DNA of 64,000 nucleotides, from the NCBI RefSeq assembly GCF_045037415.1, contig NZ_CP173440.1. One strand, written 5' to 3'. Below are positions 2-55,651 of this stretch, one piece after another. The translations under genes and the position numbers were made by a program. Numbering within the stretch: the first letter of the stretch is position 1; every line of letters starts with the position of its first letter. The stretch is from Escherichia coli (lineage in GTDB: Bacteria > Pseudomonadota > Gammaproteobacteria > Enterobacterales > Enterobacteriaceae). The notes under the pieces were generated by a model. The model made no database searches, had not been told where the DNA came from, and saw nothing but the letters and a program-made list of their open reading frames with translations.

Positions 2-1873
2 GGCGATGAAGCACCTCCGGAGAAGTTTTCACCCGAACGTGGAGAGGGGCTGAAATACCATCTGAATTTACTGCGACCGCCACGGAAAGTCAGAGAGCCT
101 GCACTGACCTGGACTGAGGCTGTCACACGTTTTGAACAGGCACAGGCGGTGGAGGAAGCCGAGCGTCAGCAACTGGTCGCCAGTTCAGGGCTAACGCATA
201 AAATTGAGTGGCTCGAAGAACAACGAAGAGTGTGGGAAGAAAGGAAGCAAACCGCAACGCTTCAGATTGAGGAATGCCGGAACGCGCTACAGGCGCTCTC
301 TGACAGACTCGCCGCGATGGAAATGACCCTGACCCTGTCCAGTGGAGATCGGGACGAACTCGATCAGCGCATCCACCAGCATGAAAAAAATAAACCCGGC
401 CTTCTGGCTAATCTCTTTTCGCTGGGGAGGATATCGAAGGCATGGTGGGATCGTTATCAACGGCTGACAGACGAATCAGATTCTTTGCGGGCGACGTTGA
501 CTCAGCAACGGCAGGAACTGCAGCTGGCGCAATCAGAAAAACATAATGCAGACAATGAACTCAGGAGCCTTGAGCGTGAGCTCACTCAGGTGATCAGCAA
601 CGGTCAGGCGGTCTGTAAAGAGCAGGAACAGAATAATACCTTGCTGAAGCAGGCTATATCCGATCTGGGAGCCTCCTGGCCGGAGCGGACTGCAACAGAT
701 GAACGAAGGGAGTTGTCAGCACCATGGCTTCATGAGCGCTGGAGAAAGGCGAGGGAAGATGTGTTTATCGCAGCATTAGACGTTCACCGGGCGTTTATTG
801 AAAATAATCCTGTAAAAATGGCCGCTAATATAGGGCTTGCAATGGACTGGTTAAAAGGGCGAAAACTGACCGAAAAACAGGCGGGTCTGGCTCTCGACTC
901 CTTATCTCTGGTCGTCCCGGTTATATCAAGCACCTTTGCGTCCATGCCCCGGATGTTCAGGGATACAGGTCAGGAAGCGATAGGCTGGTTGCTGATTGAT
1001 GAAGCCGGACAGGCACAACCTCAGCATGCGATTGGGGCTATCTGGAGAGCAAAACGCACGGTTCTGGTAGGTGACCCAAAACAACTGGAGCCGGTCAGCG
1101 GTATTCCGTCCACTGTAGAGGGGGCGCTGGGAAAACATTATAAGATCCCGTCCTGCTGGTGGCCCGGAAAAGTCTCAGCACAGATACTGGCAGACCAGAC
1201 GATGAACGTTGGCCCCTATCTGCCCGACCCGGAGTCAGAACAGATTTGGGTGGGCTGTCCGTTACGGGTTCACCGGCGCTGTGATGACCCAATGTTCAGT
1301 ATCAGTAACCATATTGCCTATGACGGGCTCATGGTCCACGGGAAAAAGCCGGGCCTGGTGGATTTCCCTGAAAGCGGATGGCTGGATGTGAAAGGGAGGA
1401 CATGCGAGGGAAACTGGGTAGTGGAGGAAGGGGCGGCAGTGGAAAAGTTACTTTTGGCGTTGCGTCACCAGTATTCACTCACACCTGACGACGTGTTTCT
1501 GATCTCGCCATTCAAGGACTGCGCTAAGCAGCTTAACCGGATCGCAAAGAGGCTGGGATTCAGGATGGACAGAACGGGGACCGTACATAAAACACAGGGC
1601 AAGGAAGCTACTGTGGTTATCCTCGTGCTGGGAGGCAACATAAAAAGTCAGGGGGCGAAAGCCTGGGCGGCGGAAAAACCCAATCTTCTGAACGTCGCGG
1701 TAAGCAGGGCGAAACAACGCATTTATGTCATCGGCGAGCGTGCATTATGGGAGAAGCAACCTTACTTTTCCACGCTGTCCCGGGCACTGGGAAGGCTGGA
1801 TGTGCCGGTGAGCAACAGCAACCCGCGTGCGATGTCATATATGGAAGAGTACTTAACCACTGAATGGCGCTGA
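2..1873 (+). CDS. SF1 (UvrD/Upf1-like) helicase-family protein, C-terminal part; 5' end lies outside the window
   Basis: Reading frame is open from nt 2 to the stop at 1873 (listed ORF 149..1873 is only the first in-window ATG). Motifs LIDEAGQ, VLVGDPKQL, TVHKTQGKE, NVAVSRAKQ match the SF1 helicase C-terminal core; coiled-coil-like region precedes it. Confidence 0.6.
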   Translation, partial: GDEAPPEKFSPERGEGLKYHLNLLRPPRKVREPALTWTEAVTRFEQAQAVEEAERQQLVASSGLTHKIEWLEEQRRVWEERKQTATLQIEECRNALQALSDRLAAMEMTLTLSSGDRDELDQRIHQHEKNKPGLLANLFSLGRISKAWWDRYQRLTDESDSLRATLTQQRQELQLAQSEKHNADNELRSLERELTQVISNGQAVCKEQEQNNTLLKQAISDLGASWPERTATDERRELSAPWLHERWRKAREDVFIAALDVHRAFIENNPVKMAANIGLAMDWLKGRKLTEKQAGLALDSLSLVVPVISSTFASMPRMFRDTGQEAIGWLLIDEAGQAQPQHAIGAIWRAKRTVLVGDPKQLEPVSGIPSTVEGALGKHYKIPSCWWPGKVSAQILADQTMNVGPYLPDPESEQIWVGCPLRVHRRCDDPMFSISNHIAYDGLMVHGKKPGLVDFPESGWLDVKGRTCEGNWVVEEGAAVEKLLLALRHQYSLTPDDVFLISPFKDCAKQLNRIAKRLGFRMDRTGTVHKTQGKEATVVILVLGGNIKSQGAKAWAAEKPNLLNVAVSRAKQRIYVIGERALWEKQPYFSTLSRALGRLDVPVSNSNPRAMSYMEEYLTTEWR

Positions 1874-2140
1874 TAAGCGCCAGGTCTGCCAGCTGTCTAA
1901 TGCGGTATCGACCGCAATACCGGGTGACTATGACATGCCTGAGGGATGATAATCAGTCGGATATCTGCCTCTAATCTTTTCCTGATATTCCCTGCCGGAC
2001 CATCAGCGTATGCAGGTGAGGCAGGGAGGTCTTCCCTCTGGTTTAGCAAGTTACTCATAAACGCTCGCCGACTTGTGAACTGGACACCAAAAGTTGGACC
2101 CTCACCAGGGCAACCAGCGAAGGTGCAGTAAAAGTTACTT

Positions 2141-2755
2141 TTATCTATAGGATTGCCAGGATTGCTGATGAGAGTTGTTAGCGAGCTTACCTGTTACCTC
2201 GGGAGGATTCTGCTTTACACGATCAAGACCGGTCCATGCATTGAGCTGCATCATTTTGCCGTTACGCTGCAGACGCCGGTTATAACGTTCCATAAATTTG
2301 AAAATATAGTTGGCTCTTACGCGAGGCGTTTTACTGTTGTAGTCAGCAATACCTTCAAACACGTTCCCTTTACGGTCAATAATTTTCCGGTGCAGCCACC
2401 ATGTCCCAACCCAAAAAGAAGCACAGGCGTCATAAGCGAGCTCACGCCAGGTAATTGCGGGGAAGTGGGATTTCACCTCAGCCAGATTTGATGAGTTAAT
2501 CTGCATTGGGCCAATATCCCATGTGCCATTGGTGTTAAGGACGAAAGAGCCAATCTTTCCACCTTCGTTATCAAAAAGAGTAAAGACAAGGTCACGGTCA
2601 ATCCCGAAGAAACGCGCGGCGTCAGTTAAACATTCGTTTTTAACCGTTTCGGGTACATTTTGGGGCTTCGGTCGATCCGGTGGGGGATTGAATGCTGCAT
2701 TTGCATTGACGGTTAAAGTGGCGAACAGCACCGCTCCAAAAAATAATCTAGTCAT
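2141..2755 (-). CDS. secreted lytic transglycosylase-like protein (SLT domain)
   Basis: Signal peptide MTRLFFGAVLFATLTVNANA and GPMQIN motif. Start is probably the ATG at 2753-2755, not the upstream TTG used by the ORF track. Confidence 0.55.
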   Translation of the reverse strand: MTRLFFGAVLFATLTVNANAAFNPPPDRPKPQNVPETVKNECLTDAARFFGIDRDLVFTLFDNEGGKIGSFVLNTNGTWDIGPMQINSSNLAEVKSHFPAITWRELAYDACASFWVGTWWLHRKIIDRKGNVFEGIADYNSKTPRVRANYIFKFMERYNRRLQRNGKMMQLNAWTGLDRVKQNPPEVTGKLANNSHQQSWQSYR

Positions 2756-2888
2756 TAACCAGCTCCTCAAAAGTAACTTTTACAGGTTACACGACAACAA
2801 AAAATTTTTTTTCCTATACCGGGGGGAAATGCCTCCTGGTCGGAAAAATATTTTTTTTTGTTTGATACAGTATTTAAGGAGGTAGGAC

Positions 2889-3617
2889 ATGATTAAACCC
2901 ATTGCAGTTGCTCTGATATTGTTAACTCCATCGGCCTATGCTGATGTTGATTTACCTGCAGAATTAAAGGACAAAATTGAAGCCGTTGGTATCAACCCCG
3001 TCTCTGCAGAGAAATCTCCGGTAAGTGGTATTTACTCAGTCTTTTCAAAAGAAGGGACGAGTTACGTCACGTCTGACGGTGAATACATCTTCACCGGAAA
3101 TTTATTCAAAGTGAAAGGGACAGAAGTGGAAAACACCACGGACGAGTTTATCAGTAAAGGGATGCGATCCTATATTGAGAAGCTCGATACTATCACCTAC
3201 AAAGCACCAGATGAGAAATATGTCATCGGTGTTTTTACTGATATCACCTGTGGCTTTTGCCAGAAACTACATAGCGACCTGCAATCCTATCTGGATAAAG
3301 GCATCACTATTAAATTCATCGCATACCCACGTGCCGGGATGAACTCCATGATAGCCCGAAACATGGCATCTGTCTGGTGTGCAGATGACAAACCTGCAGC
3401 TTTAACCAGAGCAATGAAAGGGGATGGTTTGCCTGAAAAGCAACCGACAAAGACCTGCATGGACTCCATTCAGAGCCAATTTAATGCAGGGAACATGTTC
3501 AAACTCTCAGGCACGCCTAGCGGTTTAAGCCTGAAAGGTGAGCCGATGGTATTTGCGGGGTTACGTGACCCTGACCAGATGCTGAACAGCCTGAAAACGG
3601 CCAATCAGAAAAAATAA
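2889..3617 (+). CDS. DsbC-like periplasmic thiol:disulfide isomerase
   Basis: Signal peptide, CGFC thioredoxin-type active site, AAGGAGG ribosome-binding site 7 nt upstream of the ATG. Confidence 0.6.
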   Translation: MIKPIAVALILLTPSAYADVDLPAELKDKIEAVGINPVSAEKSPVSGIYSVFSKEGTSYVTSDGEYIFTGNLFKVKGTEVENTTDEFISKGMRSYIEKLDTITYKAPDEKYVIGVFTDITCGFCQKLHSDLQSYLDKGITIKFIAYPRAGMNSMIARNMASVWCADDKPAALTRAMKGDGLPEKQPTKTCMDSIQSQFNAGNMFKLSGTPSGLSLKGEPMVFAGLRDPDQMLNSLKTANQKK

Positions 3618-3633: not shown

Positions 3634-3945
3634 ATGAAGAAATTAATTGCAGTGGCAGCGGTAGTGGTTGTTTCATTTGCCGCCCAATCCAGCGTTTGCG
3701 GGCCAGTTGCGTGCAAAGTTACTTTCGTCGATGTCGACGGCTCGCAAAAGCCGATCATGCTTCTCGATGACAAAGTTTCAACGCGGAAGAGCTCAATGAA
3801 CCGTGTATTTGATGATGTGTACTCGCACGGCCGTAAGGTCCAGACTGACCTGAAATCAACCACTCCAGCTGCCGGGCATCCTGATAAATCATCACCCGTG
3901 CAAATGAGCAGGGAATTAAGTCCTGTGGTCATCTACAGCGCATAA
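3634..3945 (+). CDS. small secreted protein, unknown function
   Basis: N-terminal signal peptide MKKLIAVAAVVVVSFAAQS; 17-bp gap after the upstream gene. Confidence 0.4.
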   Translation: MKKLIAVAAVVVVSFAAQSSVCGPVACKVTFVDVDGSQKPIMLLDDKVSTRKSSMNRVFDDVYSHGRKVQTDLKSTTPAAGHPDKSSPVQMSRELSPVVIYSA

Positions 3946-7740: not shown

Positions 7741-8013
7741 AGGGATGAATTAAAATGTTAAATATAAGTTTTTTTTGTGGGCGATGAACAGAGAATTAAA
7801 GCCGGTTATTCAGGCAGGGCAGGAACAACCACCATGGATAATCGGCTCCCGGACATGTCCGGGCAAAGAAATCGTAGAACTAGCGCATGACAGTAAGGCG
7901 GGGTAATCGAGGCAATATCTCAACAGTACAAATGAAATAATGCGTTGCTGGGTGGGCACCGGCAGTCAGAGCCAGCGTTCTGCAGCTGCATCAAAGGCTA
8001 AGTGTACCTGCCA

Positions 8014-8670
8014 TTACTCCAGCTCATGAATCAGCATGCCAGCATGTTTAATGTTTAGAGTCGTCATGTTTGCATTAAGGTCTTTCATCATTCTGGTTCC
8101 GCCGCATCGCACATATTCTCTTAATCTTCCATTGTAGGCAGCGCTGGAAGCGATTTTAAGCTGCTTTATCGGACAGGGAAGATAAGCCACTCCTTTAACG
8201 AGATCGTCCTCAACAGCGTTCAGGTAAACGGGAGAGGCCGCAATGATAAAGATATCATGCCGGTACATACTAAACAGTTCCGCAAGGGAAGGGACTTTTC
8301 CAGGCAGTATGGGGTCAGAAGTCAGCATACCCCATATGCTGGCGCTCTTTCTTCCTATCTTTGTAAACGTAGCATCATAAGGGATCGCGGGGTCAGAACT
8401 GTGTCGTAGGCCCAGACCTGCAGAAATAACCCATAAACAGATATGAGAATTAGAGTTTGCAATAGACTTAGCTGTACTCCAGTGAGCACTACAGTATATG
8501 TTTTCCGTTTCCTTAATATCATCATTACATGTAGTGAATCGGGACTGCACAAGACTTTTCCATTGCTGATAGGCAATCTCAGTATCTGTCGTATGGTAGG
8601 GAAACACAGTGTCATGTACAGGTCCTGCTTTCTTTTTCGCGCATGTTGTAATGAGATGAATAGTCGACAT
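8014..8670 (-). CDS. hypothetical protein (gene 4 of a 4-gene minus-strand operon)
   Basis: Co-directional, tightly spaced ORF; no recognisable motif. Confidence 0.35.
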   Translation of the reverse strand: MSTIHLITTCAKKKAGPVHDTVFPYHTTDTEIAYQQWKSLVQSRFTTCNDDIKETENIYCSAHWSTAKSIANSNSHICLWVISAGLGLRHSSDPAIPYDATFTKIGRKSASIWGMLTSDPILPGKVPSLAELFSMYRHDIFIIAASPVYLNAVEDDLVKGVAYLPCPIKQLKIASSAAYNGRLREYVRCGGTRMMKDLNANMTTLNIKHAGMLIHELE

Positions 8671-8699
8671 TATTCAGAGCCTATAAAGAGTATTTATTA

Positions 8700-9140
8700 T
8701 CAATAAGGTAGTGTATTTAAAGATGGGTATACTGGATCATCTTCAGGCACCCAATAACCAGACCCGCACTCCCATTCTTCTCCAATGAATACGAACATTT
8801 GCCTGGCAAGATATCTCCTGAGTTCCTGAGAGATTACGCTCTCAATTTTTAACAGGTAACTCTTGTTCTTACAATGGGCTTTTAAGTGAGAAAGAAGTGT
8901 ACTGAAGCAGCCTTGATTAGTGATAAATACAGAAACTGATGAAACAACCAGAACAGGTTTACCCAGCAAAGATGCATGTTTGCTACGTGCACGTATATAC
9001 ATGTTTTCGAACAAGGCCAAGCCATCAACATGTCTGGATTTTACTGGTATAATACTTTTATTACTTTCATCCATTAGCCTTTCAAATGTATTGATTATAT
9101 TTGTAATATCAGCCTCTAATATTTTTTGATTAATTATCAT
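8700..9140 (-). CDS. hypothetical protein (gene 3 of operon)
   Basis: ORF 8700..9182; start moved to the internal ATG (MIINQK...) to limit overlap with the upstream gene. Confidence 0.3.
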   Translation of the reverse strand: MIINQKILEADITNIINTFERLMDESNKSIIPVKSRHVDGLALFENMYIRARSKHASLLGKPVLVVSSVSVFITNQGCFSTLLSHLKAHCKNKSYLLKIESVISQELRRYLARQMFVFIGEEWECGSGYWVPEDDPVYPSLNTLPY

Positions 9141-9639
9141 TGTACTCTGCAACCCCGGTGTTTGTAACATTCTTAACATCACTGATTAAACTAATATCTA
9201 CAGAATGTGCCAGTGTTGTTAGCTCGGTAAAGTTAATTTTTTCGTAATAACCATCACTGATTAAGTTTAATAAATTAAAGTCCAGGGCAGGTGGTGGGCA
9301 AATGCTTCCAGAAGTGTAAAGATACTCAAGCCCACGCGCATCAAATATGCCGTGAGGGGCACCCTCTGATAGTTTTCCACCTGAATATAACTCAACCCAT
9401 ATCCTGAGTCGGTAATCCAGAGTGAATTCACCTATCTCAATCCAGAAATGTGGATATAACTCAAAATACGTTTTGGGGTTTTTAACTACCCCGCACATTC
9501 GTTGATGAGAAATGCCTGCATGATTTAGAGCACTGCTTATCATTAATGTATGACCATCGCACTCAACGGGTGCATTCTCAATAGCCTGTAAGAGATTGTT
9601 TAACTTCACAAGACAATCGGGCATAAGGATATTGGCCAT
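9130..9639 (-). CDS. hypothetical protein (gene 2 of operon)
   Basis: ORF, 8-bp gap to the upstream gene. Confidence 0.35.
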   Translation of the reverse strand: MANILMPDCLVKLNNLLQAIENAPVECDGHTLMISSALNHAGISHQRMCGVVKNPKTYFELYPHFWIEIGEFTLDYRLRIWVELYSGGKLSEGAPHGIFDARGLEYLYTSGSICPPPALDFNLLNLISDGYYEKINFTELTTLAHSVDISLISDVKNVTNTGVAEYNDN

Positions 9640-9647
9640 ATAAATAC

Positions 9648-10061
9648 CTATTCCGGAATTTCTGAGAGGAATTCATTAAAGAGATTATCATCGTACAGTG
9701 GGTATAATTGCTTCATCATACCAAAACCGGACATAGCTGCACTTCGCAAGTCGGGATAAAAAGTAGGCTTAGTGATAAGATCGCATTCATTCTTCAGCAC
9801 ACCTTCGAAGCAGCCGTAATCTTCCCCAAACTCCTGAACTATCATCCAACGGCCATCCTTGCATTCAACTACCATAATAGCAGACTTGGGGTAGTCGCCA
9901 GCTGGGGTCAACCAATCAAAATGGTAGTGGGTGATAGTTTGATAACTCTTATGGACATTCATAGCATTAACCCTAATGCAAGACTTACAACGTGAGAGGT
10001 TAGTGTCTGATAAAGCACTGTATATATATGGGTCTTCCCTTGTTGTGGTGGCTGAAGGCAT
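9648..10061 (-). CDS. hypothetical protein (gene 1 of operon); 5' end runs into the ISL3 inverted repeat
   Basis: The first ~14 codons (…EDPYIYSAL…) are encoded by the 23-bp terminal inverted repeat of the adjacent ISL3 element, so the native 5' end is probably disrupted or replaced. Confidence 0.3.
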   Translation of the reverse strand: MPSATTTREDPYIYSALSDTNLSRCKSCIRVNAMNVHKSYQTITHYHFDWLTPAGDYPKSAIMVVECKDGRWMIVQEFGEDYGCFEGVLKNECDLITKPTFYPDLRSAAMSGFGMMKQLYPLYDDNLFNEFLSEIPE

Positions 10062-21333: not shown

Positions 21334-22263
21334 TCAGGCAATAGCGCCTTTACCCACTCCCTCAAAGGCATGGACTTCTATTTTCGCTGCGGGTAAACCG
21401 TGCTCAATTGATTGCCTGATAAATAAAGCCAGTGACTCAACCGTGGTATCACACGGCAGAATATCTACTACCTCAGAACAAAGCATGATTTCAAAGTATC
21501 CCTGAGAACTTCGCCAGGAAGAACATGTCAGCCCCTTATGCCAGTATGTAACGGCACGCGGTGAAAGTGTTGTCACTGTAACGACATCTTCCCGGCTTAA
21601 CAGATAAGCGTTATTCCATCGCGTTGCCCACTCCTGTTCCCACATATGGCTTCGCTCACCATCCACAAAAATTCTGATCGCAGAGCGATGCCCATGCGCT
21701 ATTCTCTGGCAATTTCCGCGGTGTTTTTTCAGTCCATGCGAGTAATGATAACTGTCACCACTAATACTTTCCGGCCGTAACGTTATCGTTATGTCTTTTA
21801 CTCCCTGCGGCAAACACGCCAGTAAATGTTTTTCTATTTGGGATTCAAGGCAACGGGAAGTAATATTATCTGCCTGGACCAGCCAGAAACTCTCCTGCGG
21901 CCCGGAAATAAAACACTGGGTCTCCCCATTCTTACGCAGCATGGCGACTTCCGTCGTAGTCCCCGCATGACTAACAATAATATGACTATTTTGTTCCGGC
22001 ACAATCAGGACATGATCGGCCAGTTTATCAATTTCATGTTTGATACTTTTTTTTGCATGTGAGAAATCCATTACCATTGATTCAGCATTCAGATCCCCTT
22101 CAAGAATAATATCAACGATAAGGCTATCGCCAATCAGTCCGGCCTCCGCATCAAGGAAACTAAAATCCATGACCGTCAGATCATTAATAAAAAGTTTCAC
22201 CGCTACCTCTTTAGTAAAACAGAAAAGCCTCCTCCGCAAAAGGATTGATGAGGCAAGTATCAT
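21334..22263 (-). CDS. T-fold protein with PTPS/QueD-like C-x4-HGH motif
   Basis: NCQRIAHGH resembles the 6-pyruvoyl-tetrahydropterin synthase / QueD metal motif. Start uncertain. Confidence 0.35.
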   Translation of the reverse strand: MILASSILLRRRLFCFTKEVAVKLFINDLTVMDFSFLDAEAGLIGDSLIVDIILEGDLNAESMVMDFSHAKKSIKHEIDKLADHVLIVPEQNSHIIVSHAGTTTEVAMLRKNGETQCFISGPQESFWLVQADNITSRCLESQIEKHLLACLPQGVKDITITLRPESISGDSYHYSHGLKKHRGNCQRIAHGHRSAIRIFVDGERSHMWEQEWATRWNNAYLLSREDVVTVTTLSPRAVTYWHKGLTCSSWRSSQGYFEIMLCSEVVDILPCDTTVESLALFIRQSIEHGLPAAKIEVHAFEGVGKGAIA

Positions 22264-22329
22264 TTTGCTACATTAATAACAAATCGTTAATAATACGGTG
22301 TTATGTTAACGACACCAGCCGAGCCATAC

Positions 22330-22890
22330 TCAGAATTCATTTCGCAACAGCTGATAACCTTCCACCAGTTTGACATTAGTGCTGGCGACTTCTTCTGAAA
22401 ATTGTAAAGAAGCGGGATCCACTTTCGAATAACTTTTAAGATCGGAATCTGGCCCCACGCGTTCCGTTGATGGAATATAGGTGTTCTCAGGCAAGGTAAC
22501 GCCATCCACAACTGCATTATAGCGAATAACACAACCCGTCTGAATATGACAGTTAAACAACACACTGTTGAATCCAATAAATACCCGCTCGTCAACCTGA
22601 CAGGGGCCATGCACTATTGCACGGTGGGCAATAGATGTTCCGCTTCCTATCGTCACTGGCGCGCCGCTTTTTGAGTGAATAACCACTCCGTCCTGAATAT
22701 TAGAGTGGGAATGGATAATGATAGGATCCATATCCCCGTCTGCATTTAGCTCGTCAGCACGGATAACCGCATAGGGTCCGACGTAAACATAATCATGAAT
22801 AATGACACGTCCACAAATTACCGCGGTGGGATCGATATAGGCCTTTGTTGACACCACTGGGGTATGACCTGATGGGTTTTTACGTAACAT
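22330..22890 (-). CDS. gamma-carbonic-anhydrase-like hexapeptide-repeat protein
   Basis: Left-handed beta-helix repeat pattern (…AVICGRVIIHDYVYVGPYAVIRAD…). Start set at the internal ATG (MLRKNPSG) to avoid a large overlap with the upstream gene. Confidence 0.6.
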   Translation of the reverse strand: MLRKNPSGHTPVVSTKAYIDPTAVICGRVIIHDYVYVGPYAVIRADELNADGDMDPIIIHSHSNIQDGVVIHSKSGAPVTIGSGTSIAHRAIVHGPCQVDERVFIGFNSVLFNCHIQTGCVIRYNAVVDGVTLPENTYIPSTERVGPDSDLKSYSKVDPASLQFSEEVASTNVKLVEGYQLLRNEF

Positions 22891-23815
22891 TTTTACTTCC
22901 TTTCCAGTGAATACGGGCAACGGCATTATGGGGATGCAGGCTTTCCTGATGTTCAACCCTGATATCAAATGCTTCACAAAAGGGTGCACAACGAAAAACG
23001 TTATTGAGCCGACGGGCAGCATCTTCGCAAAACATCAGATTCTGACCGTTAGCCACCGCAAAAGCCTGTTCGTCGCTCCGCTTGACAACCGTTTGCACGG
23101 CTGTCCCGAGAGCAACTTCAGCATAATCAATCAGTTCAATCACAGGCAGTGATTTTGCTTCAGGATTAAGACGGATACTCACCCATGCCCAGCTTCGCTG
23201 GCTGTGCGGGGTTGCCGGCATTCCTTTCTCAACAAGCCAGTCGGCTATTTCTGCTGCCGGGAGCCTGTCGATCCTGTTACCAAAGTCTTTGCTAAACTGC
23301 AAACCCGCGACGTGGCGGCTAAGTGCAGCGGAAGCCGGGCAGGTGGACGAATAAGGGATACCCACTTTGAGGGTAACCGTAAAAGATTGCCTGAGTTCGG
23401 CGCTCAGAGTCAGAGGATAAGCTTTCCAGCCGGAGTGATTAGAATTTAACGACTTACGCGACAGTAACAAATCCCCTGAAATCTCAATACTGGCTTCATC
23501 ACTACGTCCCTGATGAGATACCAGAAATGCTTTCAACACATGTTGCAATAATGCCGGTGTGATTTCCCCTTGTGTCAGTTCGTCCAGAAGAAGATAAAGA
23601 CGAGACATATGGATCCCCTTTTCAGCTTCAGGTGAACTGAGAAGGTTTATGCCAGCATTGACCTTTGCTGATACCGGCCTGCCTGCGATGTCTATCGGCA
23701 GGTCAATTTGTTCCATGCCAACCCAGGATAATGACTCGCCCTCACCGTCACCCTTAGTGGACTGAATATCCGGTAGCATTCCGGGGCATAAGGTTTGTTT
23801 GGCTGCAATACTCAT
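22880..23815 (-). CDS. folE2: GTP cyclohydrolase FolE2-like (type IB)
   Basis: LPDIQ… and GIHMSRLY motifs resemble the FolE2/MptA family. Confidence 0.5.
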   Translation of the reverse strand: MSIAAKQTLCPGMLPDIQSTKGDGEGESLSWVGMEQIDLPIDIAGRPVSAKVNAGINLLSSPEAEKGIHMSRLYLLLDELTQGEITPALLQHVLKAFLVSHQGRSDEASIEISGDLLLSRKSLNSNHSGWKAYPLTLSAELRQSFTVTLKVGIPYSSTCPASAALSRHVAGLQFSKDFGNRIDRLPAAEIADWLVEKGMPATPHSQRSWAWVSIRLNPEAKSLPVIELIDYAEVALGTAVQTVVKRSDEQAFAVANGQNLMFCEDAARRLNNVFRCAPFCEAFDIRVEHQESLHPHNAVARIHWKGSKNVT

Positions 23816-31937: not shown

Positions 31938-31973
31938 TACCTTACATCTCCTCAGATATTCGTTGTGTTCGGA

Positions 31974-32381: not shown

Positions 32382-32393
32382 CCCACCTTTTTG

Positions 32394-32411: not shown

Positions 32412-32519
32412 TCAAACATAATTGCCAGTTATCACGATTTCACAGGCACTGTACTTCTTGGGTAACATCTGACCGGAAAAAGAAACAAAGCAAATGTGAT
32501 AGAGGCAGCAGGAGGCAAG

Positions 32520-33020
32520 ATGAATAACAAACTACATTCTGAATTGATTAAGAAAGCTATGTTCCCGGATCTAGGCTGTTCAGAATTTAGGGAACTGACT
32601 GCCCGTAAGGCGATGCGAATTACTCCGATGCGGATGATGGTGTATCACTTCATCAGGTGTGCTGAAGACAAAGGTATCAGTGCATACCAAATCCTTGACC
32701 AGTTAAAATCATATAACCCAAATGCAAAACCAACTACTGTTTATCGTACTCTGGATTATCTACAACAGGCTGGAGTCATTGTAAAAATAGAAAGCTGTAG
32801 CAAGTTTGTAAAAAAGAATAGCTTTCCCCATGAAGGATTAACACTTTTTATGATTTGTTCAAACTGCGGTACAATCATTCAGCATACAGACAGCAAAATA
32901 CAATATTACGTTGAGGATAAATCACATGAATATGGGTATATTATGCAAAGAAAGGACATAGAAATCAGTATAATTTGTCCCGGTTGTCAGGCTAATGAAA
33001 AAATGGCGCAATCTGGGTGA
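32520..33020 (+). CDS. second Fur-family regulator (low-GC, divergent from the hisI-COG0523 operon)
   Basis: Winged-helix region and CSNCG…CPGC structural-zinc-type motifs. Start set at MNNKLH. Confidence 0.6.
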   Translation: MNNKLHSELIKKAMFPDLGCSEFRELTARKAMRITPMRMMVYHFIRCAEDKGISAYQILDQLKSYNPNAKPTTVYRTLDYLQQAGVIVKIESCSKFVKKNSFPHEGLTLFMICSNCGTIIQHTDSKIQYYVEDKSHEYGYIMQRKDIEISIICPGCQANEKMAQSG

Positions 33021-33395
33021 ATTGTGCTCAATAAGCATACGATTAGTAACTTCCCATATTATATGTGAAACAGAAAAAATATTATTACGGTCGATAAAAT
33101 TAAGAATAATATAAATTAGCACTCCCACAAATATTGATTGAAATAATGCTGAATTATTTTCAATAAATAATACAAATAATGCAATTTGAAAAATACCTAC
33201 CTATCATGTTTAGCAAAGCATGACTATTTAGGATCATAAAAACAAAAAAGGAAATTTATAATTTATTTATTTTAACCGTTTTATTTGCACTCCATGTAAA
33301 TGCATGCTTAAATTCCCATGCATTTCCTAAACAATATTACTAATGACCTTTATATACAATAATACAGAAATCCTAAATAACTGATCCTAATACCG

Positions 33396-34390
33396 CTACA
33401 GTTTAGCCAACCCATGTTTTCCACCGGGGAATGGGCTGACGGTATTCATAAAGTGACGAACCTTTTTCAACAGTTTCCACATTGAGTGGCACTGATGATT
33501 TCGGGTTATTGTCTCGTGAAGCGCCTGCCACAACCGTTCGACATGATTGACCCGCGGCGAGTAAACCGGCTGATAAATTACCCTGAACTTCGGGTTTGCT
33601 TTCAGCCAACGCAACGTTTCACGGCTTTTGTGGATGATGTGGTTATCGACAATGAGCGTAATCGTTTTTGCCCGCCGGTATGTCGCCTTCAGATGTTTTA
33701 AGTCTGATAAATAAGGAAGAACCTTTACTGTTTCCACTAACGTAGCTGGCTTTTCCTGTATCGCTGTGCAGCGCACCGGCAAGATAGTACTTTTCATTCT
33801 GGCCCAGCGTGACTACGCGCTTTTGCTGCCCGCGCAGATGCCAGTCAGCACCAATTTTGGGATTGAGGTGAATATCCACTTCATCTTCGTAAAATACGGG
33901 GTTTTCCGCACTGCATTCGCCAGTGCTTCATGGATAGCGACCATTTTTTCTTCTTTGTGTGGGGCACGGATACGCAGTGTCGGCGCTGCTCTCCGCCATA
34001 CCAGTCCGGCAGCAGGTAACCATCGCCGGATGGTTGAAGCATGTAGCGGACAACCGATAACATCACGGACTTTTATCGCCAGCAGTTCGGTGCTCCAGCG
34101 GGAACGCTGATAACTGAAATCGCCGGGAGAATGCTTAACAAGCTCAAGCAGCAATGCGCAAATATGTTCGAACGGCCAGCGCCTCCCACGTCCTGACGGC
34201 AATGATTTCAGGCCTTCAGTACCAGACAGCGTGAACCAGTTAATCTAGCGACCAATCGATGAGCGGGCACAGCAGAGCGTTCTGGCAACATGACTGACGG
34301 TGTCACCATGATGCAGCATCAGCATGGCGGTGAGCCGCCGGGCGAGGTTTTTGTCCTTTGTTTTATTGATATTTTTATCCATCAGGCGTC
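33396..34390 (-). pseudogene. IS630-family transposase, broken into three or more frames
   Basis: ORFs 33396..33797 (DDE C-terminus, …YQPVYSPRVNHVERLW…) and 33813..34202 (N-terminal part), plus an HTH piece near 34250-34390. Confidence 0.55.
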
Positions 34391-34478
34391 ACTGGCTCTT
34401 GCCCGCATATCAGCTGCATTATAGTACGGCATCAGGTAATTCCTTGATGGTTGTTATCCGCGATATCAGACCTGACGT

Positions 34479-35460
34479 CTATTTATTGGGCTGAATTTCC
34501 CGGATGCTGCTTAAATCACGGTGACGTGAACTCCAGACGCCGCTTCCGACCGCGGCACCGGTGGATTTTCTGAAGCGCAGGCCGCACTCACTGACCCACT
34601 GGGAACTGGTTTCCCGCAGCCTGACTAAACGGGGTTGGTAGCATTCAGTAACGGTCCCGGTGTGAGTCATCTTCTTCTGCTTTTTCGTTTCATGGACATG
34701 GGTGACCTTATCTGACGAACCATTCACCGCCCGGTCACGGTATTCAGTAGGGATCTCCATAGACAGGCGCAGAGGCAGGGCCCTGCCCTGCCCCGGGACG
34801 GGTAACAGACTGTCCGCCGTGGCTTTCAGCCAGCCATACAGCTTATGACCATTACCCGGAATGCCATCAAGCGTCAGTTTACGCGCGGTGAAGCTCCCGT
34901 CCTGCCTTCGGACCTTCCGCAGGAAGGTACCCAGAGGCTTACCAGACTCAACCGGCTCCGCCACAATCTAGTCATACCCTGGAAACTGATCGAGCATCAG
35001 GTCGATATACTCCCAGTCGAGGACGACAATGACGTGGCCATGAATGTCAGGGCCGTCATTCCACTGTATGGCAATGACATAAGGGAACAGCATGTCGTCG
35101 TGAACTCAGAGATACTGAACTAGGCTCTAGCTGGCCAGTTCACAACTGCCGGCCGGAAATGGCTTCAGCCAGTCACGCCAGAGGGAAGGTACCGGCTCAC
35201 CGGACCGTTCTCCGGCGGCCAGCTCCAGCGCCCGACGGAAGGCCTTCACACGGGCCCAGGTTTCCGCATTCATTTCTTTGCCTTCCCATCAGCACGCGCT
35301 AGGATCAGCAGGCTGAACGCGTCACGAATAACAACTCACTAGATACCATAGCCACCTGACTGCACAGGTAAATCAATGAATTCTGGCGGCCCGGCCAGTA
35401 CCTTTGTCAGATCCAGCGGTAGATGTATGACATTGGTCATTCACCGGCTAGGTTCACAAA
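34479..35460 (-). pseudogene. degraded gene of unknown family with several in-frame TAG stops
   Basis: Consecutive minus-strand coding-like segments are interrupted by stops, several in CTAG context. Confidence 0.3.
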
Positions 35461-49136: not shown

Positions 49137-49673
49137 GGGCTTCGGCCCTATTAAAAATATCAGCCATTTTTTAACACATAGTAATAGAATCCGATTCAAA
49201 GTGATTCTCACATGGTCTCAGAAAGTAACTTTTTTAGGTTAATCTTTGTTATAGAGCTATTAAACCATAACTTCTGAAAATATCTTTTATTCTTATCTTT
49301 CAGTTATCATAATGACTTTTTAGATTAAGCCCCTAGTTTGAATGTGTTTGTTTGAAAAAATATTTTATAAAACATATTATGGTTAATTATTTGGTTGATG
49401 TTTTATTTCAAACATATCTACTTTACTCCTGCATGGATAGGTCTGCACATCTTGCCGCAAGATCATAAAATAAAAGTACAATTATGCGTTCTATTGAAAA
49501 CAGGACCTGATATCATGGACGATTCCACTCCCCTGCTCGTTCCCCCAACCAAAAGATAAAAGTAACTTTTGAGGCTTAAAGGGTTTCATCCCTGATGTTC
49601 TTCATCCAGCGATTTTAATACTGCCCCATTAACCGGACAGAAATCATCCGAATATTTTCTTTTACATTGCCGC

Positions 49674-49732
49674 GCGCTACGTGAAATCTGACGTACTCAC
49701 CCCTCCGATTTTCTTCAGATTTCGCGTAGCGC
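49674..49732. repeat. 18-bp inverted repeat (one mismatch) with 23-nt spacer in an AT-rich non-coding region
   Basis: GCGCTACGTGAAATCTGA … TCAGATTTCGCGTAGCGC. Confidence 0.8.
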
Positions 49733-50521
49733 AACCTGGGCGGAAACCACTCGAAAAGTAACTTTTGGACAGATTTAGAAGCCGGTTACCCCCACTATTG
49801 TTATTAACATAATATTAACACAAGGAATAATCGTTATTATTCGAACTGTAACTAGGATGTTGCATACCTCTTGAAGCGATGAAAATATGAGCATATTTCT
49901 CATTATTCCTGAATCCATACATTTTTATTGTTTTTATAGCGACATATTGAAACTCTGTTTTATTTAATAAGTATCAATTTTATAATCAATTTCTGTTATT
50001 TTATCGCTATTGACATTTACTATTGTGACTATATCCAATGATATTAGATCACTTACATCTGAAAGTGACAGTGTCACGGATTGTGCACCCAGAGAGACCC
50101 TTTTCGTGAAAAAAGTAGTTCACTCCCATAACGAAACGTGGGCTTCTTTTTTGCAGATCGTATGTGGATGTCTTCAGGTAGCAGGAAGGAAAGTGATGCA
50201 GGCATGAAAGGATGACAAACCGGCAAAGGGGCTGCTACTGCTCCATATTCAACAAACCACCCCTGGTTAGTTGAATCCTTTGCCGGTTTTCCTGACAATA
50301 CCAGACAGGTAAACTTTTTCCATCAGATTTTCTCGTCAACATGTTGCATTCATAGTTTTTCCATAATTGGATGCTTTTGCAGGACAACTACGGTTTTTAT
50401 CCTTTCGTGCCCGGTAAAAAAAATAGTTAAATAGCGATTTCACCCTTTTAAAGGAAAAATTGTCCTCAGGCTCACAGTACTATAAAAGTATCAATAATCA
50501 GGAGCCGGTAATGACTCCAAC

Positions 50522-51025
50522 TTATTGATAGTGTTTTATGTTCAGATAATGCCCGATGACTTTGTCATGCAGCTCCACCGATTTTGAGAACGACAGCGAC
50601 TTCCGTCCCAGCCGTGCCAGGTGCTGCCTCAGATTCAGGTTAAGCCGCTCAATTCGCTGCGTATATCGCTTGCTGATTACGTGCAGCTTTCCCTTCAGGC
50701 GGGATTCATACAGCGGCCAGCCATCCGTCATCCATATCACCACGTCAAAGGGTGACAGCAGGCTCATAAGACGCCCCAGCGTCGCCATAGTGCGTTCACC
50801 GAATACGTGCGCAACAACCGTCTTCCGGAGCCTGTCATACGCGTAAAACAGCCAGCGCTGGCGCGATTTAGCCCCGACATAGCCCCACTGTTCGTCCATT
50901 TCCGCGCAGACGATGACGTCACTGCCCGGCTGTATGCGCGAGGTTACCGACTGCGGCCTGAGTTTTTTAAGTGACGTAAAATCGTGTTGAGGCCAACGCC
51001 CATAATGCGGGCGGTTGCCCGACAT
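50522..51025 (-). CDS. insB: IS1 InsB
   Basis: 167-aa product matches IS1 InsB. Confidence 0.9.
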
Positions 51026-51219
51026 CCAACGCCATTCATGGCCATATCAATGATTTTCTGGTGCGTACCGGGCTGAGAAGCGGTGTAAGTGAACTGCAGT
51101 TGCCATGTTTTACGGCAGTGAGAGCAGAGATAGCGCTGATGTCCGGCAGTGCTTTTGCCGTTACGCACCACCCCGTCAGTAGCTGAACAGGAGGGACAGC
51201 TGATAGAAACAGAAGCCAC
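50944..51219 (-). CDS. insA: IS1 InsA
   Basis: 91-aa product matches IS1 InsA (…[32 protein letters not shown]…). Confidence 0.9.
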
Positions 51220-51252
51220 TGGAGCACCTCAAAAACACCATCATACACTAAA

Positions 51253-51843
51253 TCAGTAAGTTGGCAGCATCACCAACCTTATGTACCTTTTGCAGCCAAA
51301 TTTTCTTGTTATTTTGCTTTGGTAGCATGATAGCATTTTTTCTTCAATTTTTAGTTGACTTTTTATTTCATTAATGCCCCCATTTTTCAGTAGGCATTGC
51401 AGCACTGCTTGTTCCTTTTTTGTTAGCCGTGGATAATGGTTTACAATTCGGCTAACATTTTTCTTTAAGAATGCAAAATATAGTTTTTCAATATTATTTT
51501 TTACATTTCCTTGCATGTTAACATAGATGTCATAATCACACCCTTTAGGATAAAACCGCCCCCCCCCCGAAACGTCAAGCCACATCCATTGGCTTATCAT
51601 ATTTAATGATCCCCTTAACATTTTGTACCCTCCCCATTTCCCTGAATAAAAAATCCTGCTGTCAACCAATACTCTTATGTTTCTTTTGTGCTTAATTGCT
51701 ATTGATTTATTAACTACTCCTTCATATGTAATATGAAACAGAGGTAGTCCAGTTAACTGCTTTAGGCCATAATAAAAAAAATAATCATCAGTCAACACTA
51801 TGTTTACATCCTTGTTACATATAAAGTAAATATATTTTTCCAT
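51253..51843 (-). CDS. LuxR-type HTH regulator, 3' end fused to the IS1 terminus, with internal G10 tract
   Basis: C-terminal LuxR-like HTH (LTKKEQAVLQCLLKNG…KITRKFG). The last ~7 codons come from IS1. The C10 run at 51559-51568 encodes GGG within the ORF. Confidence 0.45.
   Translation of the reverse strand: MEKYIYFICNKDVNIVLTDDYFFYYGLKQLTGLPLFHITYEGVVNKSIAIKHKRNIRVLVDSRIFYSGKWGGYKMLRGSLNMISQWMWLDVSGGGRFYPKGCDYDIYVNMQGNVKNNIEKLYFAFLKKNVSRIVNHYPRLTKKEQAVLQCLLKNGGINEIKSQLKIEEKMLSCYQSKITRKFGCKRYIRLVMLPTY
51559..51568. repeat. C10 homopolymer (G10 on the coding strand) inside the LuxR-type ORF
   Basis: Ten consecutive C at 51559-51568. Confidence 0.9.
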
Positions 51844-54110: not shown

Positions 54111-54221
54111 ATTAATTAGAGGCATTGATCTCCTCCCTGAAAACAGTGCCGTCTCCTCGCCTCGTGAGCTCACACCAACAGAAGCACCGGCAGAAATAAG
54201 AATCCCTGGTTTCTCCTGATA

Positions 54222-55651
54222 CTATTTAATAATTTCTGACAGGGCCTGACCTGCTTTCTGAATATAAACTGGTTGCGAGACCTCACCCAGCTGATTGGCA
54301 ACCATCCGGGTTTCATAATGACTGGCAGTTAATACCAGAGCTGGCCCGTGAATACAGGACAGTTGTTCAACTACTGCCTTTAACCATTGACCTGAAAATA
54401 TCTGTTCTTTCGGGTCATCGAACACCTTTGGAAAATCAGCACCGGCGATGGTCAGCTTCATTGAGCCATAGACGTCTGGGGAGAATATTTTCCTGATTGA
54501 AATCGTATCGCTGGTTAACCCCAGAGCTTTACATAACCACTCCATTCCGGTCTCTGGGGTACTGGTAATAGAGAGGGTAGCCGACGTCAGTAACGCACTA
54601 CGCCACTGAGTGCAGTATCTGCCCACATTCATCCCGATAAACGGGTTTACAGCGATCAGGGCTGGTTCACGACGTTTATTGGAAACGCCTACGCCCTTTT
54701 GCCCCCGGACAATCCGAGCATATCCCTGCTGTAGATACAGTCAAAGAAAGCTTTCCGGGCCGCTTCATTTTTTATTTTCCGCCCTACCTTTGATAAGGCG
54801 TTAAAGCTATTGTCAAACAAGGCAACCGCTGCAGGCGTACTACAAAAATGCAGATCGCCCGCTATCGAAGTCACGTCGTTCATTAACTGGTCGATGACAT
54901 GCACGCCATTACGTGGAATATGTTCATTGAACGCACTAGTCAACTCTCTGAGGTTGAAGCGCCGCTGTTTCCAGACCTCAAGCATATCTACAAAAATGTC
55001 TGCCTCATCAATAATGAGGTACATATTTTCTTTGTCACCGAGGATGCGGTGATTACACATACAGTCGACCATTACCATCGCATGGGTCGTAACAATAAAG
55101 TTAGCACTGAGAGCATTCAGGCGAATATCATCAATGTCCTGTATATCATCCCAGATGGAGTAGGTGACCATCTCTGGCGTGATCTGCGCTGGCAGTTCAC
55201 CATACTCTTCTTCAAACTCAACCAGAGGTTTTGACCAGTTAGCGAGTTTTTCAAGGACCTTAACCGTATCCAGATCGGTAAATTCGTCCATGAGTAACAG
55301 TCCACGTACTTTCTCCAGGGATACGTAATTTACTTTCCCCATAAGCCGGGAAAAAGTAACTTTTATGCCGCATTGTTCAGCTATCTGTTCAAGGAGAGGA
55401 CGATCGCTTCTGAATATCTGGTGCATCAGTGCATGAGAATTCGTGGCAATCACAAATTTTGCCTCAGGGTTTTTCAGCAGAATCAGAAGCGCCGGTACCA
55501 GATAGCCCAGCGTTTTTCCTACACCTGTTTCAGCACTAATCAGTGCAACTTTATGATCCTGAGTCAGTGCACCAGCTGCAGCCTCGATATAATCCTGTTG
55601 GACCTTACGTAACGACAATCCGGCAGACTCAAATACCGCTGATGTATTCAT
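54222..55651 (-). pseudogene. DinG/Rad3-like SF2 helicase, frameshifted and C-terminally truncated
   Basis: Walker A ETGVGKT and LIIDEAD in ORF 54689..55684; LLTSATLS in ORF 54222..54632 in a different frame. The gene ends against IS-derived DNA. Confidence 0.5.

Follow-up and report, generated by a model that had tools for sequence, protein, structure and literature searches.

A dispersed 13-bp palindrome marks IncHI-type plasmid backbones and is a predicted plasmid-wide operator

The 64-kb stretch of plasmid DNA analysed here (the window) carries a short palindrome at widely separated places, which raises the question of what the site is for and which protein would recognise it. A sequence-only reading had described the palindrome as perfect and present eight times. 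Six copies are perfect (exact AAAAGTNACTTTT), whereas the other two have imperfect outer bases and retain the 11-bp core, AAAGTNACTTT, giving eight cores in the window (Table 1). The expectation that such a 13-mer would occur by chance well under once was borne out, with 0.01 copies expected by shuffling and six found; none of 100 dinucleotide-preserving shuffles reached six. The coordinates first given for the six exact copies were right. Of the imperfect copies, the one placed at 49222-49234 was one base off, and the one given as 3715-3726 is a 12-base span whose core is 3715-3725 and whose 13-mer frame is 3714-3726.

Table 1. Palindrome sites in the window and genes discussed in the text. 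Positions are those of the window unless the record is named.
Feature	Position	Strand	Core start	Context
Exact site, AAAAGTTACTTTT	1443..1455		1444	In 3' part of DEAD/DEAH helicase gene (149-1873, +); reads EKLLLA in frame
Exact site, AAAAGTTACTTTT	2130..2142		2131	Overlaps stop codon of lytic transglycosylase gene
Lytic transglycosylase gene	2141..2755	-		Annotation of NZ_CP072809.1; a site at either end
Exact site	2769..2781		2770	Divergent promoter region of the lytic transglycosylase and thioredoxin-fold (DsbC-like) genes
Thioredoxin-fold (DsbC-like) gene	2889..3617	+		First gene of its operon
Weak site, CAAAGTTACTTTC	3714..3726		3715	Two mismatches, core intact; in 103-codon hypothetical gene (3634-3945, +)
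One-mismatch site, GAAAGTAACTTTT	49221..49233		49222	AT-rich block without annotated gene, 3' of DUF1173 gene fragments
Exact site, AAAAGTAACTTTT, then GAGG	49558..49570		49559	Same block as 49221..49233
Exact site	49754..49766		49755	22 bp past a conserved inverted repeat with an 18-bp stem
Exact site	55352..55364		55353	In dinG (csf4) fragment of a type IV-A3 CRISPR-Cas remnant (54689-55684, -)
Orphan ParB/KorB-fold protein gene	23462-24703 of NZ_CP072809.1			Outside the window
Orphan ParB/KorB-fold protein gene	342088-343266 of NZ_CP072809.1			Outside the window

The window is part of a 388-kb Klebsiella pneumoniae IncHI1B/IncFIB hybrid hypervirulence plasmid (NZ_CP072809.1), which was used for whole-plasmid counts. 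When the count was widened in this way, the core was found 92 times on the plasmid and not once in a 200-kb sample of the K. pneumoniae chromosome. The 188-kb IncHI1B backbone holds 84 of the cores, compared to the 0.4-1.0 expected from Markov models of order 1-4. The 200 kb of accessory DNA holds eight, which sit in backbone relics (the four copies at window 49-55 kb) or belong to the tellurium resistance (ter) cluster and its surroundings; no core was found outside backbone relics in ~150 kb of enterobacterial-type accessory DNA on the same plasmid. Sites occur once per 2.2 kb in IncHI1B and once per 4.3 kb in IncHI1A, with an intergenic density of ~1 per kb. Copies with A or T at the centre make up 86% and those with C or G 14%, with RAAAGTNACTTTY as the consensus; the invariance of the arms follows from the way the core is defined. 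Base frequencies fall back to background beyond position +/-8. No sequence is shared beyond the core and the flanks of the copies are unrelated; the motif is therefore not a mobile repeat, and a dispersed repeat element (REP, MITE or IS fragment) was rejected, as was the possibility raised earlier that the copies are fragments of a known repeat family. Other multi-copy palindromes were absent from the backbone except for the Par repeats and a likely CRISPR array.

In pKP20-558-1 (a divergent Klebsiella plasmid), in IncHI2 and in IncHI1A (R27-like; 46 cores in 198 kb), this motif again ranks first among palindromes. It also ranks first in contigs L015, L016, L018 and L020, three uncatalogued IncHI-like contigs among them, and some motif-bearing contigs are without nucleotide similarity to any catalogued enterobacterial plasmid. 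The IncC locus lacks the motif. Across the lineages that carry it the motif is identical, although shared plasmid proteins are only 25-65% identical. Alignment of seven sites with pKP20-558-1 gave identities of 95% for the arms, 80% for the flanks and 71% for the centre, and the central base changes between orthologous sites while the arms stay. Judged from these alignments, the constraint acts on the DNA. The eight window copies are members of a ~90-copy family marking IncHI-type plasmid backbones, not an island-local set, and the motif can serve as a simple sequence tag by which DNA from IncHI backbones is recognised, even where it persists in mosaic plasmids as decayed relics. The palindrome is most likely a hitherto undescribed site bound by a global DNA-binding protein that the plasmid encodes, possibly one of the KorB/ParB kind; searchable publications yielded no account of the motif.

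Within the window, two copies do lie inside helicase-like genes, a DEAD/DEAH helicase gene and a dinG fragment, as had been noted. The site in the former is kept at the orthologous position in pKP20-558-1 (L010 position 19261), as is site 2130 (L010 position 19978). Site 2769 has one mismatch there (L010 position 20596), and the counterpart of site 3714 is CAAAGTTACTTTT (L010 position 21541). Two copies were said to bracket the lytic transglycosylase gene in inverted orientation. The bracketing is correct, with one copy overlapping the stop codon and the other 14 bp upstream of the start, but the orientation is meaningless because the motif is palindromic; only the central base (T versus A) differs. 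On the minus strand, site 2769 is directly followed by GAGGAG-N7-ATG of the transglycosylase gene, and the start of the thioredoxin-fold gene (2889) is 114 bp downstream of the centre of the same site. The transglycosylase gene is probably under the control of a palindrome site, and the thioredoxin-fold gene is probably under the control of site 2769.

The clustering of three further copies in a non-coding block at 49.2-49.8 kb was also correctly seen, as the block has no annotated gene. Its part around 49221-49233 has no homologue in the diverged relatives examined. Of three diverged relatives, one keeps site 49558 intact and two have it in decayed form. Site 49754 is intact in two of three relatives (82-88% identical), in one of which the centre has switched from A to T, and has one mismatch in the third; 37 bp after it lies a conserved promoter-like TTAACA-N16-AATAAT (49804-49831). 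Site 55352 shares its sequence context with the copy at record position 30481, where the IncHI1B backbone carries an intact dinG. All four sites between 49 and 55 kb are what remains of a decayed IncHI-like backbone within a virulence-plasmid segment.

The position of the sites relative to genes points to promoters. Of the 84 backbone cores, 47 are intergenic, compared to a non-coding fraction of 21.8% (p=1e-11), and the site centre lies 100-125 bp upstream of the start codon in 10 cases versus 2.4 expected (p=1e-4). Predicted -35 boxes are slightly over-represented (9 versus 4.7 expected) at 28-35 bp downstream of the site centre, and three promoters have a -35 box 22-25 bp past the end of the site. 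Many sites are located ~65 bp upstream of predicted transcription starts or adjoin ribosome-binding sites. Clusters of sites are found in the promoter regions of the trhA operon and of a ParB-like gene and in the mobI/trhR intergenic region; trhR or trhY has sites 80-88 bp upstream in three lineages, and the H and AC operons have sites nearby at variable distances. The other 44% of sites are inside genes, many at gene ends, and many sites lie just past stop codons; intragenic copies occur in all three reading frames, and four copies near gene starts encode a signal-peptide-like K-K-L-L-L. A simple promoter operator leaves many intragenic and post-stop-codon sites unexplained.

At the F-operon (traF/trhF) promoter, no site was found within three mismatches in IncHI1B; the IncHI2 locus has no 13-mer within one mismatch and IncHI1A has no exact core. 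The R27-like plasmid has no site at several transfer-operon promoters (Z, AN and F). A TrhR/TrhY-dependent promoter element was rejected, since the F promoter of IncHI1B and the F and Z promoter regions of the R27-like plasmid are without the site.

The best candidates for the binding protein are encoded by the two orphan ParB/KorB-fold genes; their R27 orthologues are WP_000108723.1 and WP_001281654.1. The family profile of the 23462-24703 protein matched ParB/Spo0J/Noc with E=1e-17 (Noc and ParB, 1e-15 to 1e-17) and KorB with E=2e-8, HTH_ParB was present in 61 of 80 family members, and GxxR residues G101 and R104 are invariant. Its AlphaFold2 model has a pLDDT of 94.5, and the best Foldseek hits were RK2 KorB (8qa8/8qa9). 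The promoter of this gene bears six exact sites in IncHI1B, and in a three-way promoter alignment (IncHI1B, IncHI1A and IncHI2) AAAAAAAGTWACTTTTT is the sole well-conserved island. All lineages examined (IncHI1B, IncHI1A, IncHI2, L015 and L016) have conserved sites in this promoter, and homologues at 37-38% identity have a site upstream as well. With an intergenic density of ~1 per kb, a site upstream of any one gene is therefore weak evidence alone.

Neither ParB-like gene neighbours a parA. The canonical ParAB pair of the plasmid is encoded elsewhere, and its operon is flanked by its own array (record 347.8-350.7 kb and 353.8-354.1 kb), in which a 66-bp unit with an AACAAC-N3-GTTGTT core is repeated in tandem ~40 times. 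The palindrome was rejected as the parS centromere of this ParAB, since the repeat array is there and only one weak palindrome lies near parAB; because the canonical pair has its own repeats, the palindrome is left for the orphan proteins. In the HTH region of the ParB-like proteins, no residue separates homologues of motif-bearing elements from those of motif-free elements, the recognition helix varies among motif-bearing members, and the IncC homologue (31% identity) comes without any such palindrome. The pairing of the orphan proteins with the site is a putative one.

From the observed enrichment, backbone specificity, positional bias, conservation and candidate fold, we infer binding, a regulatory role and a binder. 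In the explanation that we favour, and which we hold to be somewhat probable, the palindromes are an operator spread across IncHI-type backbones and bound by a plasmid-encoded dimer, probably one or both orphan ParB/KorB-like proteins. A symmetric dimer would recognise both AAAGT arms and leave the central base free, and one or both of the orphan proteins would be the most likely binder. The bound protein would co-ordinate transfer, leading-region, replication-proximal and surface-protein genes, resulting in a global plasmid regulon in the manner of KorB-OB of IncP plasmids. The operator of a dimeric DNA-binding protein had already been proposed for the window copies; enrichment, position, arm conservation and the shared motif all fit this proposal, which stands as a prediction.

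The closest likeness is to KorB. OB of IncP-1 RK2 is a perfect 13-bp palindrome with 6-1-6 symmetry, TTTAGCSGCTAAA, and RK2 carries 12 OB sites. Both systems have a 13-bp 6-1-6 palindrome spread over the backbone, at promoters and far away from them. KorB is a ParB-family global regulator that controls its own gene, and the structure closest to the candidate is that of RK2 KorB; by profile and model, the plasmid likewise encodes a ParB-family member that combines an N-terminal CTPase-type domain with a DNA-binding helix-turn-helix domain. However, there are ~45-90 sites here versus 12 OB sites on RK2, the site sequences are unrelated, and the typical site is at ~-65 and not directly beside the -35 box. 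No KorA-like partner operator was found among the multi-copy palindromes here. KorB also doubles as a partition protein beside the ParA protein IncC, whereas the ParB-like genes here are orphans and ParAB is separate. KorB is a CTP-dependent sliding clamp capable of long-range silencing (PMC11790492). BisD of ICEclc is a ParB-like CTP clamp that loads at the palindromic, parS-like bisS and controls transfer-gene promoters at a distance with BisC (PMC12409273). It resembles the present case in combining a ParB-like protein (here a candidate) on a conjugative element with palindromic sites. In contrast, bisS is a 23-bp palindrome that occurs only twice on ICEclc, compared to dozens of 13-bp sites here, and BisD has an extra activator domain and a second DNA-binding protein, BisC, with no partner established here. 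Noc and chromosomal ParB bind as dimers to 14-16-bp palindromes, with ~70 dispersed chromosomal sites for Noc in B. subtilis. They share the ParB fold and a family profile match with the candidate, but their sites are chromosomal and of other sequences, with roles in division-site selection or segregation and not in gene control.

The TrhR/TrhY-HtdA circuit, like the predicted operator, is plasmid-wide. It is conserved in IncHI plasmids and controls transfer genes and most others, with no DNA site described (PMC7366339). Mutation of htdA derepresses most R27 genes, again with no cis element for the effect described in the publications consulted. The two differ in that the TrhR/TrhY-activated F-operon promoter is without the palindrome. 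A component of this circuit, or a small winged-helix or ribbon-helix-helix IncHI core protein, might nevertheless bind the site and have the ParB-like genes as targets, which we consider rather unlikely. The sites upstream of trhR or trhY, the lack of a signature specific to motif-bearing elements in the HTH region of the ParB-like proteins and the many uncharacterised backbone proteins speak for such a regulator. One 75-residue protein (12999-13226), 48% identical between IncHI1B and IncHI1A, has a winged-helix look by eye. Against a TrhR/TrhY component, the F-operon promoter is the standard reporter of TrhR/TrhY activation and is without the site in IncHI1B, IncHI2 and IncHI1A. HtdA opposes TrhR/TrhY at the protein level (PMC7366339). 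The TrhR-like, TrhY-like and HtdA-like proteins had no NCBIfam match, the first two had no match to a Pfam DNA-binding family, and none of the alternative candidates bears conserved sites in the promoter of its own gene.

A conserved chromosomal protein of Enterobacterales exploited by IncHI plasmids would account for an invariant motif among plasmids whose shared proteins have diverged to 25-65% identity. This is improbable, as the chromosome sample and the ~150 kb of accessory DNA outside relics have no core and the motif also occurs in contigs unlike any catalogued enterobacterial plasmid at the nucleotide level; we know of no E. coli transcription factor or nucleoid protein with this consensus. 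We give a similarly small probability to a role in the physical organisation of the plasmid (condensing, tethering or marking, as for Noc sites, matS or SlmA), possibly through the same orphan ParB-like proteins. The spread of ~90 sites over the whole backbone, with 44% within genes and many at gene ends, and the ParB/Noc/KorB fold with conserved GxxR residues would suit it, but the intergenic enrichment, the 100-125 bp peak upstream of starts and the promoter clusters (trhA operon, mobI/trhR region and ParB-like gene) indicate promoters. The target of a site-specific enzyme (restriction, nicking or methylation), the other proposal of the sequence-only reading, found no support, and neither it nor a by-product of coding or base composition is at all likely. 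The plasmid does encode several methyltransferases, HNH endonucleases and a type II restriction enzyme. However, an element that encodes a restriction enzyme usually avoids the target of that enzyme and this motif is enriched ~100-fold, 13 bp far exceeds a typical methyltransferase target, and the conserved N6/N4 methyltransferase is also found in the motif-free IncC locus. A coding by-product could be seen in the four K-K-L-L-L copies, but all three frames are used, most copies are non-coding and Markov models to order 4 give at most one copy.

IncHI plasmids (R27/pHCM1, the mcr-1 and IncHI2 lineages, IncHI1B pNDM-MAR-type plasmids and hypervirulence hybrids) are major vehicles for multidrug resistance and, within Klebsiella, also for hypervirulence; their regulation is only partly understood. 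A 13-bp operator at ~45-90 places offers a directly testable handle that predicts a global regulator and nominates two orphan ParB/KorB-like proteins, with the likely regulon definable from sequence alone. If the preferred operator reading is true, KorB-style global plasmid control would gain a second example on a much larger scale, and the operator might serve as a target for blocking transfer of IncHI plasmids or destabilising them. A bolder version, which we put forward tentatively and regard as doubtful, is that the ~45-90 identical sites load an orphan CTP-dependent ParB/KorB-like clamp that silences or, like BisD, licenses nearly the entire plasmid, with its genes for transfer, the leading region and Ig-like surface proteins. 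Such a clamp would form a chromatin-like, plasmid-wide control layer apart from H-NS/Hha and TrhR/TrhY-HtdA and would explain the so far puzzling co-regulation of most genes of R27. Its control would also reach the relic sites in the virulence segment of hybrid hypervirulence plasmids.

The pattern AAAAGTNACTTTT had six exact matches in the window, compared to 0.01 copies predicted by dinucleotide-preserving shuffles, and none of 100 shuffled sequences contained six. Two further copies carry one or two mismatches, and the 11-bp core, AAAGTNACTTT, is intact in all eight. The sequence-only reading had described a perfect palindrome present eight times in exact or near-exact copies, an exact 13-mer being expected well under once by chance. 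The chance expectation is borne out and eight copies do retain the core, but only six are perfect 13-mers; the span that it assigned to the 3.7-kb copy (3715-3726) includes the intact core, its 13-mer frame is one base off at 49.2 kb. In other respects the observation holds. The window was 99.99-100% identical to NZ_CP072809.1, a K. pneumoniae IncFIB/IncHI1B/IncR hybrid plasmid combining hypervirulence with NDM-1, and begins at record position 72070. The first ~10 kb of the window is IncHI1B conjugative backbone, with DEAD/DEAH helicase, lytic transglycosylase, DsbC-like and DsbA-like genes. The make-up of the window segments holding the copies therefore places all eight in IncHI-backbone-derived DNA.

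Positions of the palindrome copies and associated features ("record" refers to NZ_CP072809.1)
Feature	Position	Sequence or accession	Remark
13-mer palindrome		AAAAGTAACTTTT	arm-mutated form, AAAACTAAGTTTT
Six exact copies	window 1443, 2130, 2769, 49558, 49754, 55352		
Seventh copy	window 49221	GAAAGTAACTTTT	one mismatch
Eighth copy	window 3714	CAAAGTTACTTTC	two outer mismatches
Lytic transglycosylase/thioredoxin-fold promoter	window 2756-2888		
Two paralogous orphan genes	record 23462-24703 (first), 342088-343266 (second)		ParB-type N-terminal domain and helix-turn-helix domain
Orphan ParB-like proteins, IncHI1B		WP_004197197.1, WP_004196657.1	
Orphan ParB-like proteins, R27		WP_000108723.1, WP_001281654.1	
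66-bp repeats	record 347800-350700, 353770-354110 (7800-10700, 13770-14110 of retrieved locus L009)	core GAAAACAACCCCGTTGTTCGCAGTC	~40 in tandem upstream of parA, three downstream of parB; no annotated gene

For a whole-plasmid count, the sequence of NZ_CP072809.1 was joined from nine pieces. It contained 45 exact 13-mers, 88 copies at ≤1 mismatch and 92 cores, 84 of them in the 188-kb IncHI1B backbone (record 1-82 kb and 282-388 kb), compared to 0.4-1.0 expected there under Markov models of order 1-4. Of the eight cores in the 200 kb of virulence/resistance cargo, four belong to backbone relics (window 49-55 kb); the tellurium resistance (ter) cluster or its vicinity accounts for the other four. 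No core was found in four 50-kb samples of a K. pneumoniae chromosome. Mismatches gathered at the outermost positions (position -6: A 67%, G 28%), and the centre was A or T in 86% of copies. Taken with base frequencies at background past position +/-8, this gives the consensus RAAAGTNACTTTY and shows that the copies are not pieces of some longer repeat. The two outcomes that the sequence-only reading had named as counting against it, a background frequency genome-wide and membership of a known repeat family, are thus at odds with the 84 backbone cores and with the background flanks, respectively. The backbone also carries 17 copies of CCCCCG-N4-CGGGGG, which we take to be probably the type IV-A3 CRISPR array repeats beside the cas genes, at ~34-35 kb.

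The enrichment in related plasmids that the same reading had proposed to look for was found: the core was the commonest palindrome in every IncHI-type sequence examined. These were pKP20-558-1 (~84% DNA identity), with 15 cores in 41 kb and 16 sites at ≤1 mismatch of the 13-mer, several of them at orthologous positions; the R27-like IncHI1A plasmid pLR-50, with 46 cores in 198 kb; two IncHI2 loci; and four metagenomic or draft contigs encoding IncHI-like transfer genes and/or Ig-like (DUF4165) proteins, two of which had no nucleotide-level match to the plasmid collection beyond ~100 bp. The motif is the same in IncHI1B and IncHI1A. Proteins common to both are 25-79% identical; the best conserved are transfer or structural proteins, and no highly conserved DNA-binding protein stands out in this comparison. 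An IncC locus and two unrelated contigs, all encoding homologues of the candidate binder considered below, had no cores. When 100,044 species genomes were scanned for pairs of cores separated by 15-45 bp, the matches listed were mostly tandem repeats in unrelated phyla, with no ParB-like homologue at any of the loci; this has no bearing on the distribution of the motif. In a Tolypothrix campylonemoides scaffold (JXCB02000056.1, locus L071, 225-12469), TGAAAGTSACTTTCA is present in eight dispersed copies over 14 kb. The copies have the same core as the IncHI motif, with G or C at the centre and flanks that differ yet are conserved, and the locus encodes no ParB-like homologue; they are probably an unrelated operator or iterated palindrome.

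Sites were concentrated between genes: 47 of the 84 backbone cores were intergenic, against a non-coding share of just 21.8% for the backbone (binomial p=1e-11). Ten sites had their centre 100-125 bp from the following start codon, compared to 2.4 expected (p=1e-4). Three of these promoters have a recognisable -35/-10 pair (TTGATG-N16-TATCCT or similar) with the end of the site 22-25 bp upstream of it, so that the site is centred near -65; across sites generally, -35 boxes 28-35 bp downstream of the centre were only weakly in excess in a position-weight-matrix scan (9 versus 4.7). Some sites directly abut the Shine-Dalgarno sequence (the lytic transglycosylase gene; record 6182), and others are found in the opening 40 nt of a gene or no more than ~30 bp past a stop codon. 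Close to gene starts, four copies fall on codons of signal peptides. Genic copies use all three reading frames, encoding KVTF, KLLL or KSxF, and the constraint therefore acts at the DNA level. Leading-region promoters at record 5093, 14873, 18743, 23368 and others share a module, AAATAGGGGCTTGA-N17-TATCCTGG, which occurs with or without an upstream palindrome and looks like a repeated promoter cassette.

Conservation was centred on the arms of the palindrome. In seven sites aligned with pKP20-558-1, the twelve arm positions were 95% identical, compared to 80% for the flanks and 71% for the central base. A three-way alignment of the ParB-like gene promoter from IncHI1B, IncHI1A and IncHI2 revealed AAAAAAAGTWACTTTTT as the sole well-conserved island. 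Within a block lacking annotated genes, the site at window 49754 was compared with three relatives of 82-88% overall identity and was intact in two (one with a central A->T change), with one mismatch in the third; the site at 49558 had decayed in two of the three. A symmetric dimeric DNA-binding protein would be expected to leave this pattern of symmetric arms around an unconstrained centre. Upstream of site 49754 lies an 18-bp inverted repeat (window 49674-49732; 94% complementary, 23-nt loop) that is kept in three plasmids with surroundings just 82-88% identical. The site itself is followed by a conserved promoter-like sequence, TTAACA-N16-AATAAT (49804-49831). None of the records annotates a gene in the inverted-repeat region, nor does any Rfam family match it.

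Several other identities for the motif were weighed. It is not the canonical parS centromere of ParAB, because parAB is flanked by its own ~40 tandem 66-bp repeats with core AACAAC-N3-GTTGTT, an array that is probably the centromere of the IncHI1B ParAB system. A TrhR/TrhY activation element was rejected on the grounds that no site occurs in IncHI1B, IncHI2 or IncHI1A at the F-operon promoter, which R27 studies use as their standard reporter (PMC7366339); in the R27-like plasmid, the Z and AN promoters are site-free as well. TrhR-like, TrhY-like and HtdA-like proteins matched no family in the NCBIfam scan, and neither TrhR-like nor TrhY-like matched one in Pfam; a likeness of the TrhY CxxC...CxxC arrangement to FlhC is therefore unsupported. 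An RNA element was rejected, as there is no Rfam match anywhere in the window and a hairpin with a 1-nt loop on a 6-bp A/U-rich stem cannot form. The sequence-only reading had also offered the target of a site-specific enzyme, and restriction or methylation is implausible for a 13-bp sequence enriched 100-fold. It is very probable that a dimeric protein specified by the plasmid binds the motif and has a regulatory or organisational role.

The candidate binder is a pair of orphan ParB-like proteins, 31% identical to each other. A profile was built from 80 homologues taken from a full HMMER search, which was needed for the distant ones since a word-index search gave close homologues only. Structures of ParB/Spo0J and Noc matched it at E=1e-15 to 1e-17, KorB at E=2e-8. 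Pfam HTH_ParB was detected in 61 of the 80 members, and the GxxR residues are invariant across the family. RK2 KorB was the best Foldseek hit of the AlphaFold2 model (pLDDT 94.5), with ParB and Noc next. Dimers of known members of this fold recognise palindromes of 13-16 bp. For BisD, loading at palindromic sites is described (PMC12409273). Six exact sites lie within 870 bp upstream of the first gene in IncHI1B, two, at about -97 and -219, upstream of each of its IncHI1A and IncHI2 orthologues, and a site or near-site upstream of homologues of 37-38% identity. For the second paralogue, a site lies at -112 in IncHI1B and another abuts the start codon in retrieved contig L018. A single upstream site is weak evidence alone, because intergenic site density is high. 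The backbone has no other multi-copy palindrome that these proteins might bind instead. On the other side, the recognition helix varies among motif-bearing members, a comparison of the HTH region between ParB-like proteins of motif-bearing and motif-free elements revealed no discriminating position, and the IncC homologue has no such palindrome alongside. KorB specificity is reported to stem from residues outside the recognition helix, so the first two of these points argue only moderately against the pairing. That an orphan ParB-like protein binds the motif is possible but rather less likely than not.

Under the proposed mechanism, each palindrome would be bound by one dimer, and sites near -65 or beside the ribosome-binding site would modulate transcription initiation. 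Should the binder resemble KorB, the many sites could also serve to load CTP-dependent clamps with long-range effects, as outlined for a KorB-type clamp (PMC11790492), and this would explain why some sites fall within genes or at their ends. Since the candidate gene has sites in its own promoter and is located in the presumed leading region, arrival in a new cell might bring a burst of expression and then plasmid-wide shut-down. We found no description of the motif in searchable full text, which includes work on R27 regulation, IncHI comparative genomics and R27 incC; subscription journals are mostly outside it, and the R27 and R478 genome papers may mention the motif. A global plasmid operator is a known kind of system from KorB/OB. 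The IncHI motif differs from it in site number, in having an orphan candidate with a separate partition system alongside, and in belonging to a different plasmid family.

The window has further features of its own. Site 55352 was said to lie in a helicase-like gene; this is correct in kind, and the gene is a dinG (csf4) fragment. It belongs to an inverted duplicate at 54156-56276 (ORFs 54689-55684 and 55654-56220, minus strand), 96.7% identical to cas6 and the 5' part of dinG in the type IV-A3 CRISPR-Cas locus of the plasmid and truncated beside an IS5 element. An island at ~15800-34500, with none of the palindromes, carries paralogues, of a typically zinc-independent kind, of housekeeping genes (hemB, dihydroorotase, threonyl-tRNA-ligase-like, folE2, dksA, zigA-type GTPases, cysS and hisI) together with two Fur/Zur-type repressors, and is presumably where the Zur-box motif noted earlier belongs. 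The window differs from NZ_CP072809.1 (388,104 bp) by one 2481-bp deletion beside an IS1 copy, in the stretch 50507-51843; the deletion removed peg-344, rmpD and the last 61 nt of rmpA and thus leaves rmpA 3'-truncated in this plasmid.
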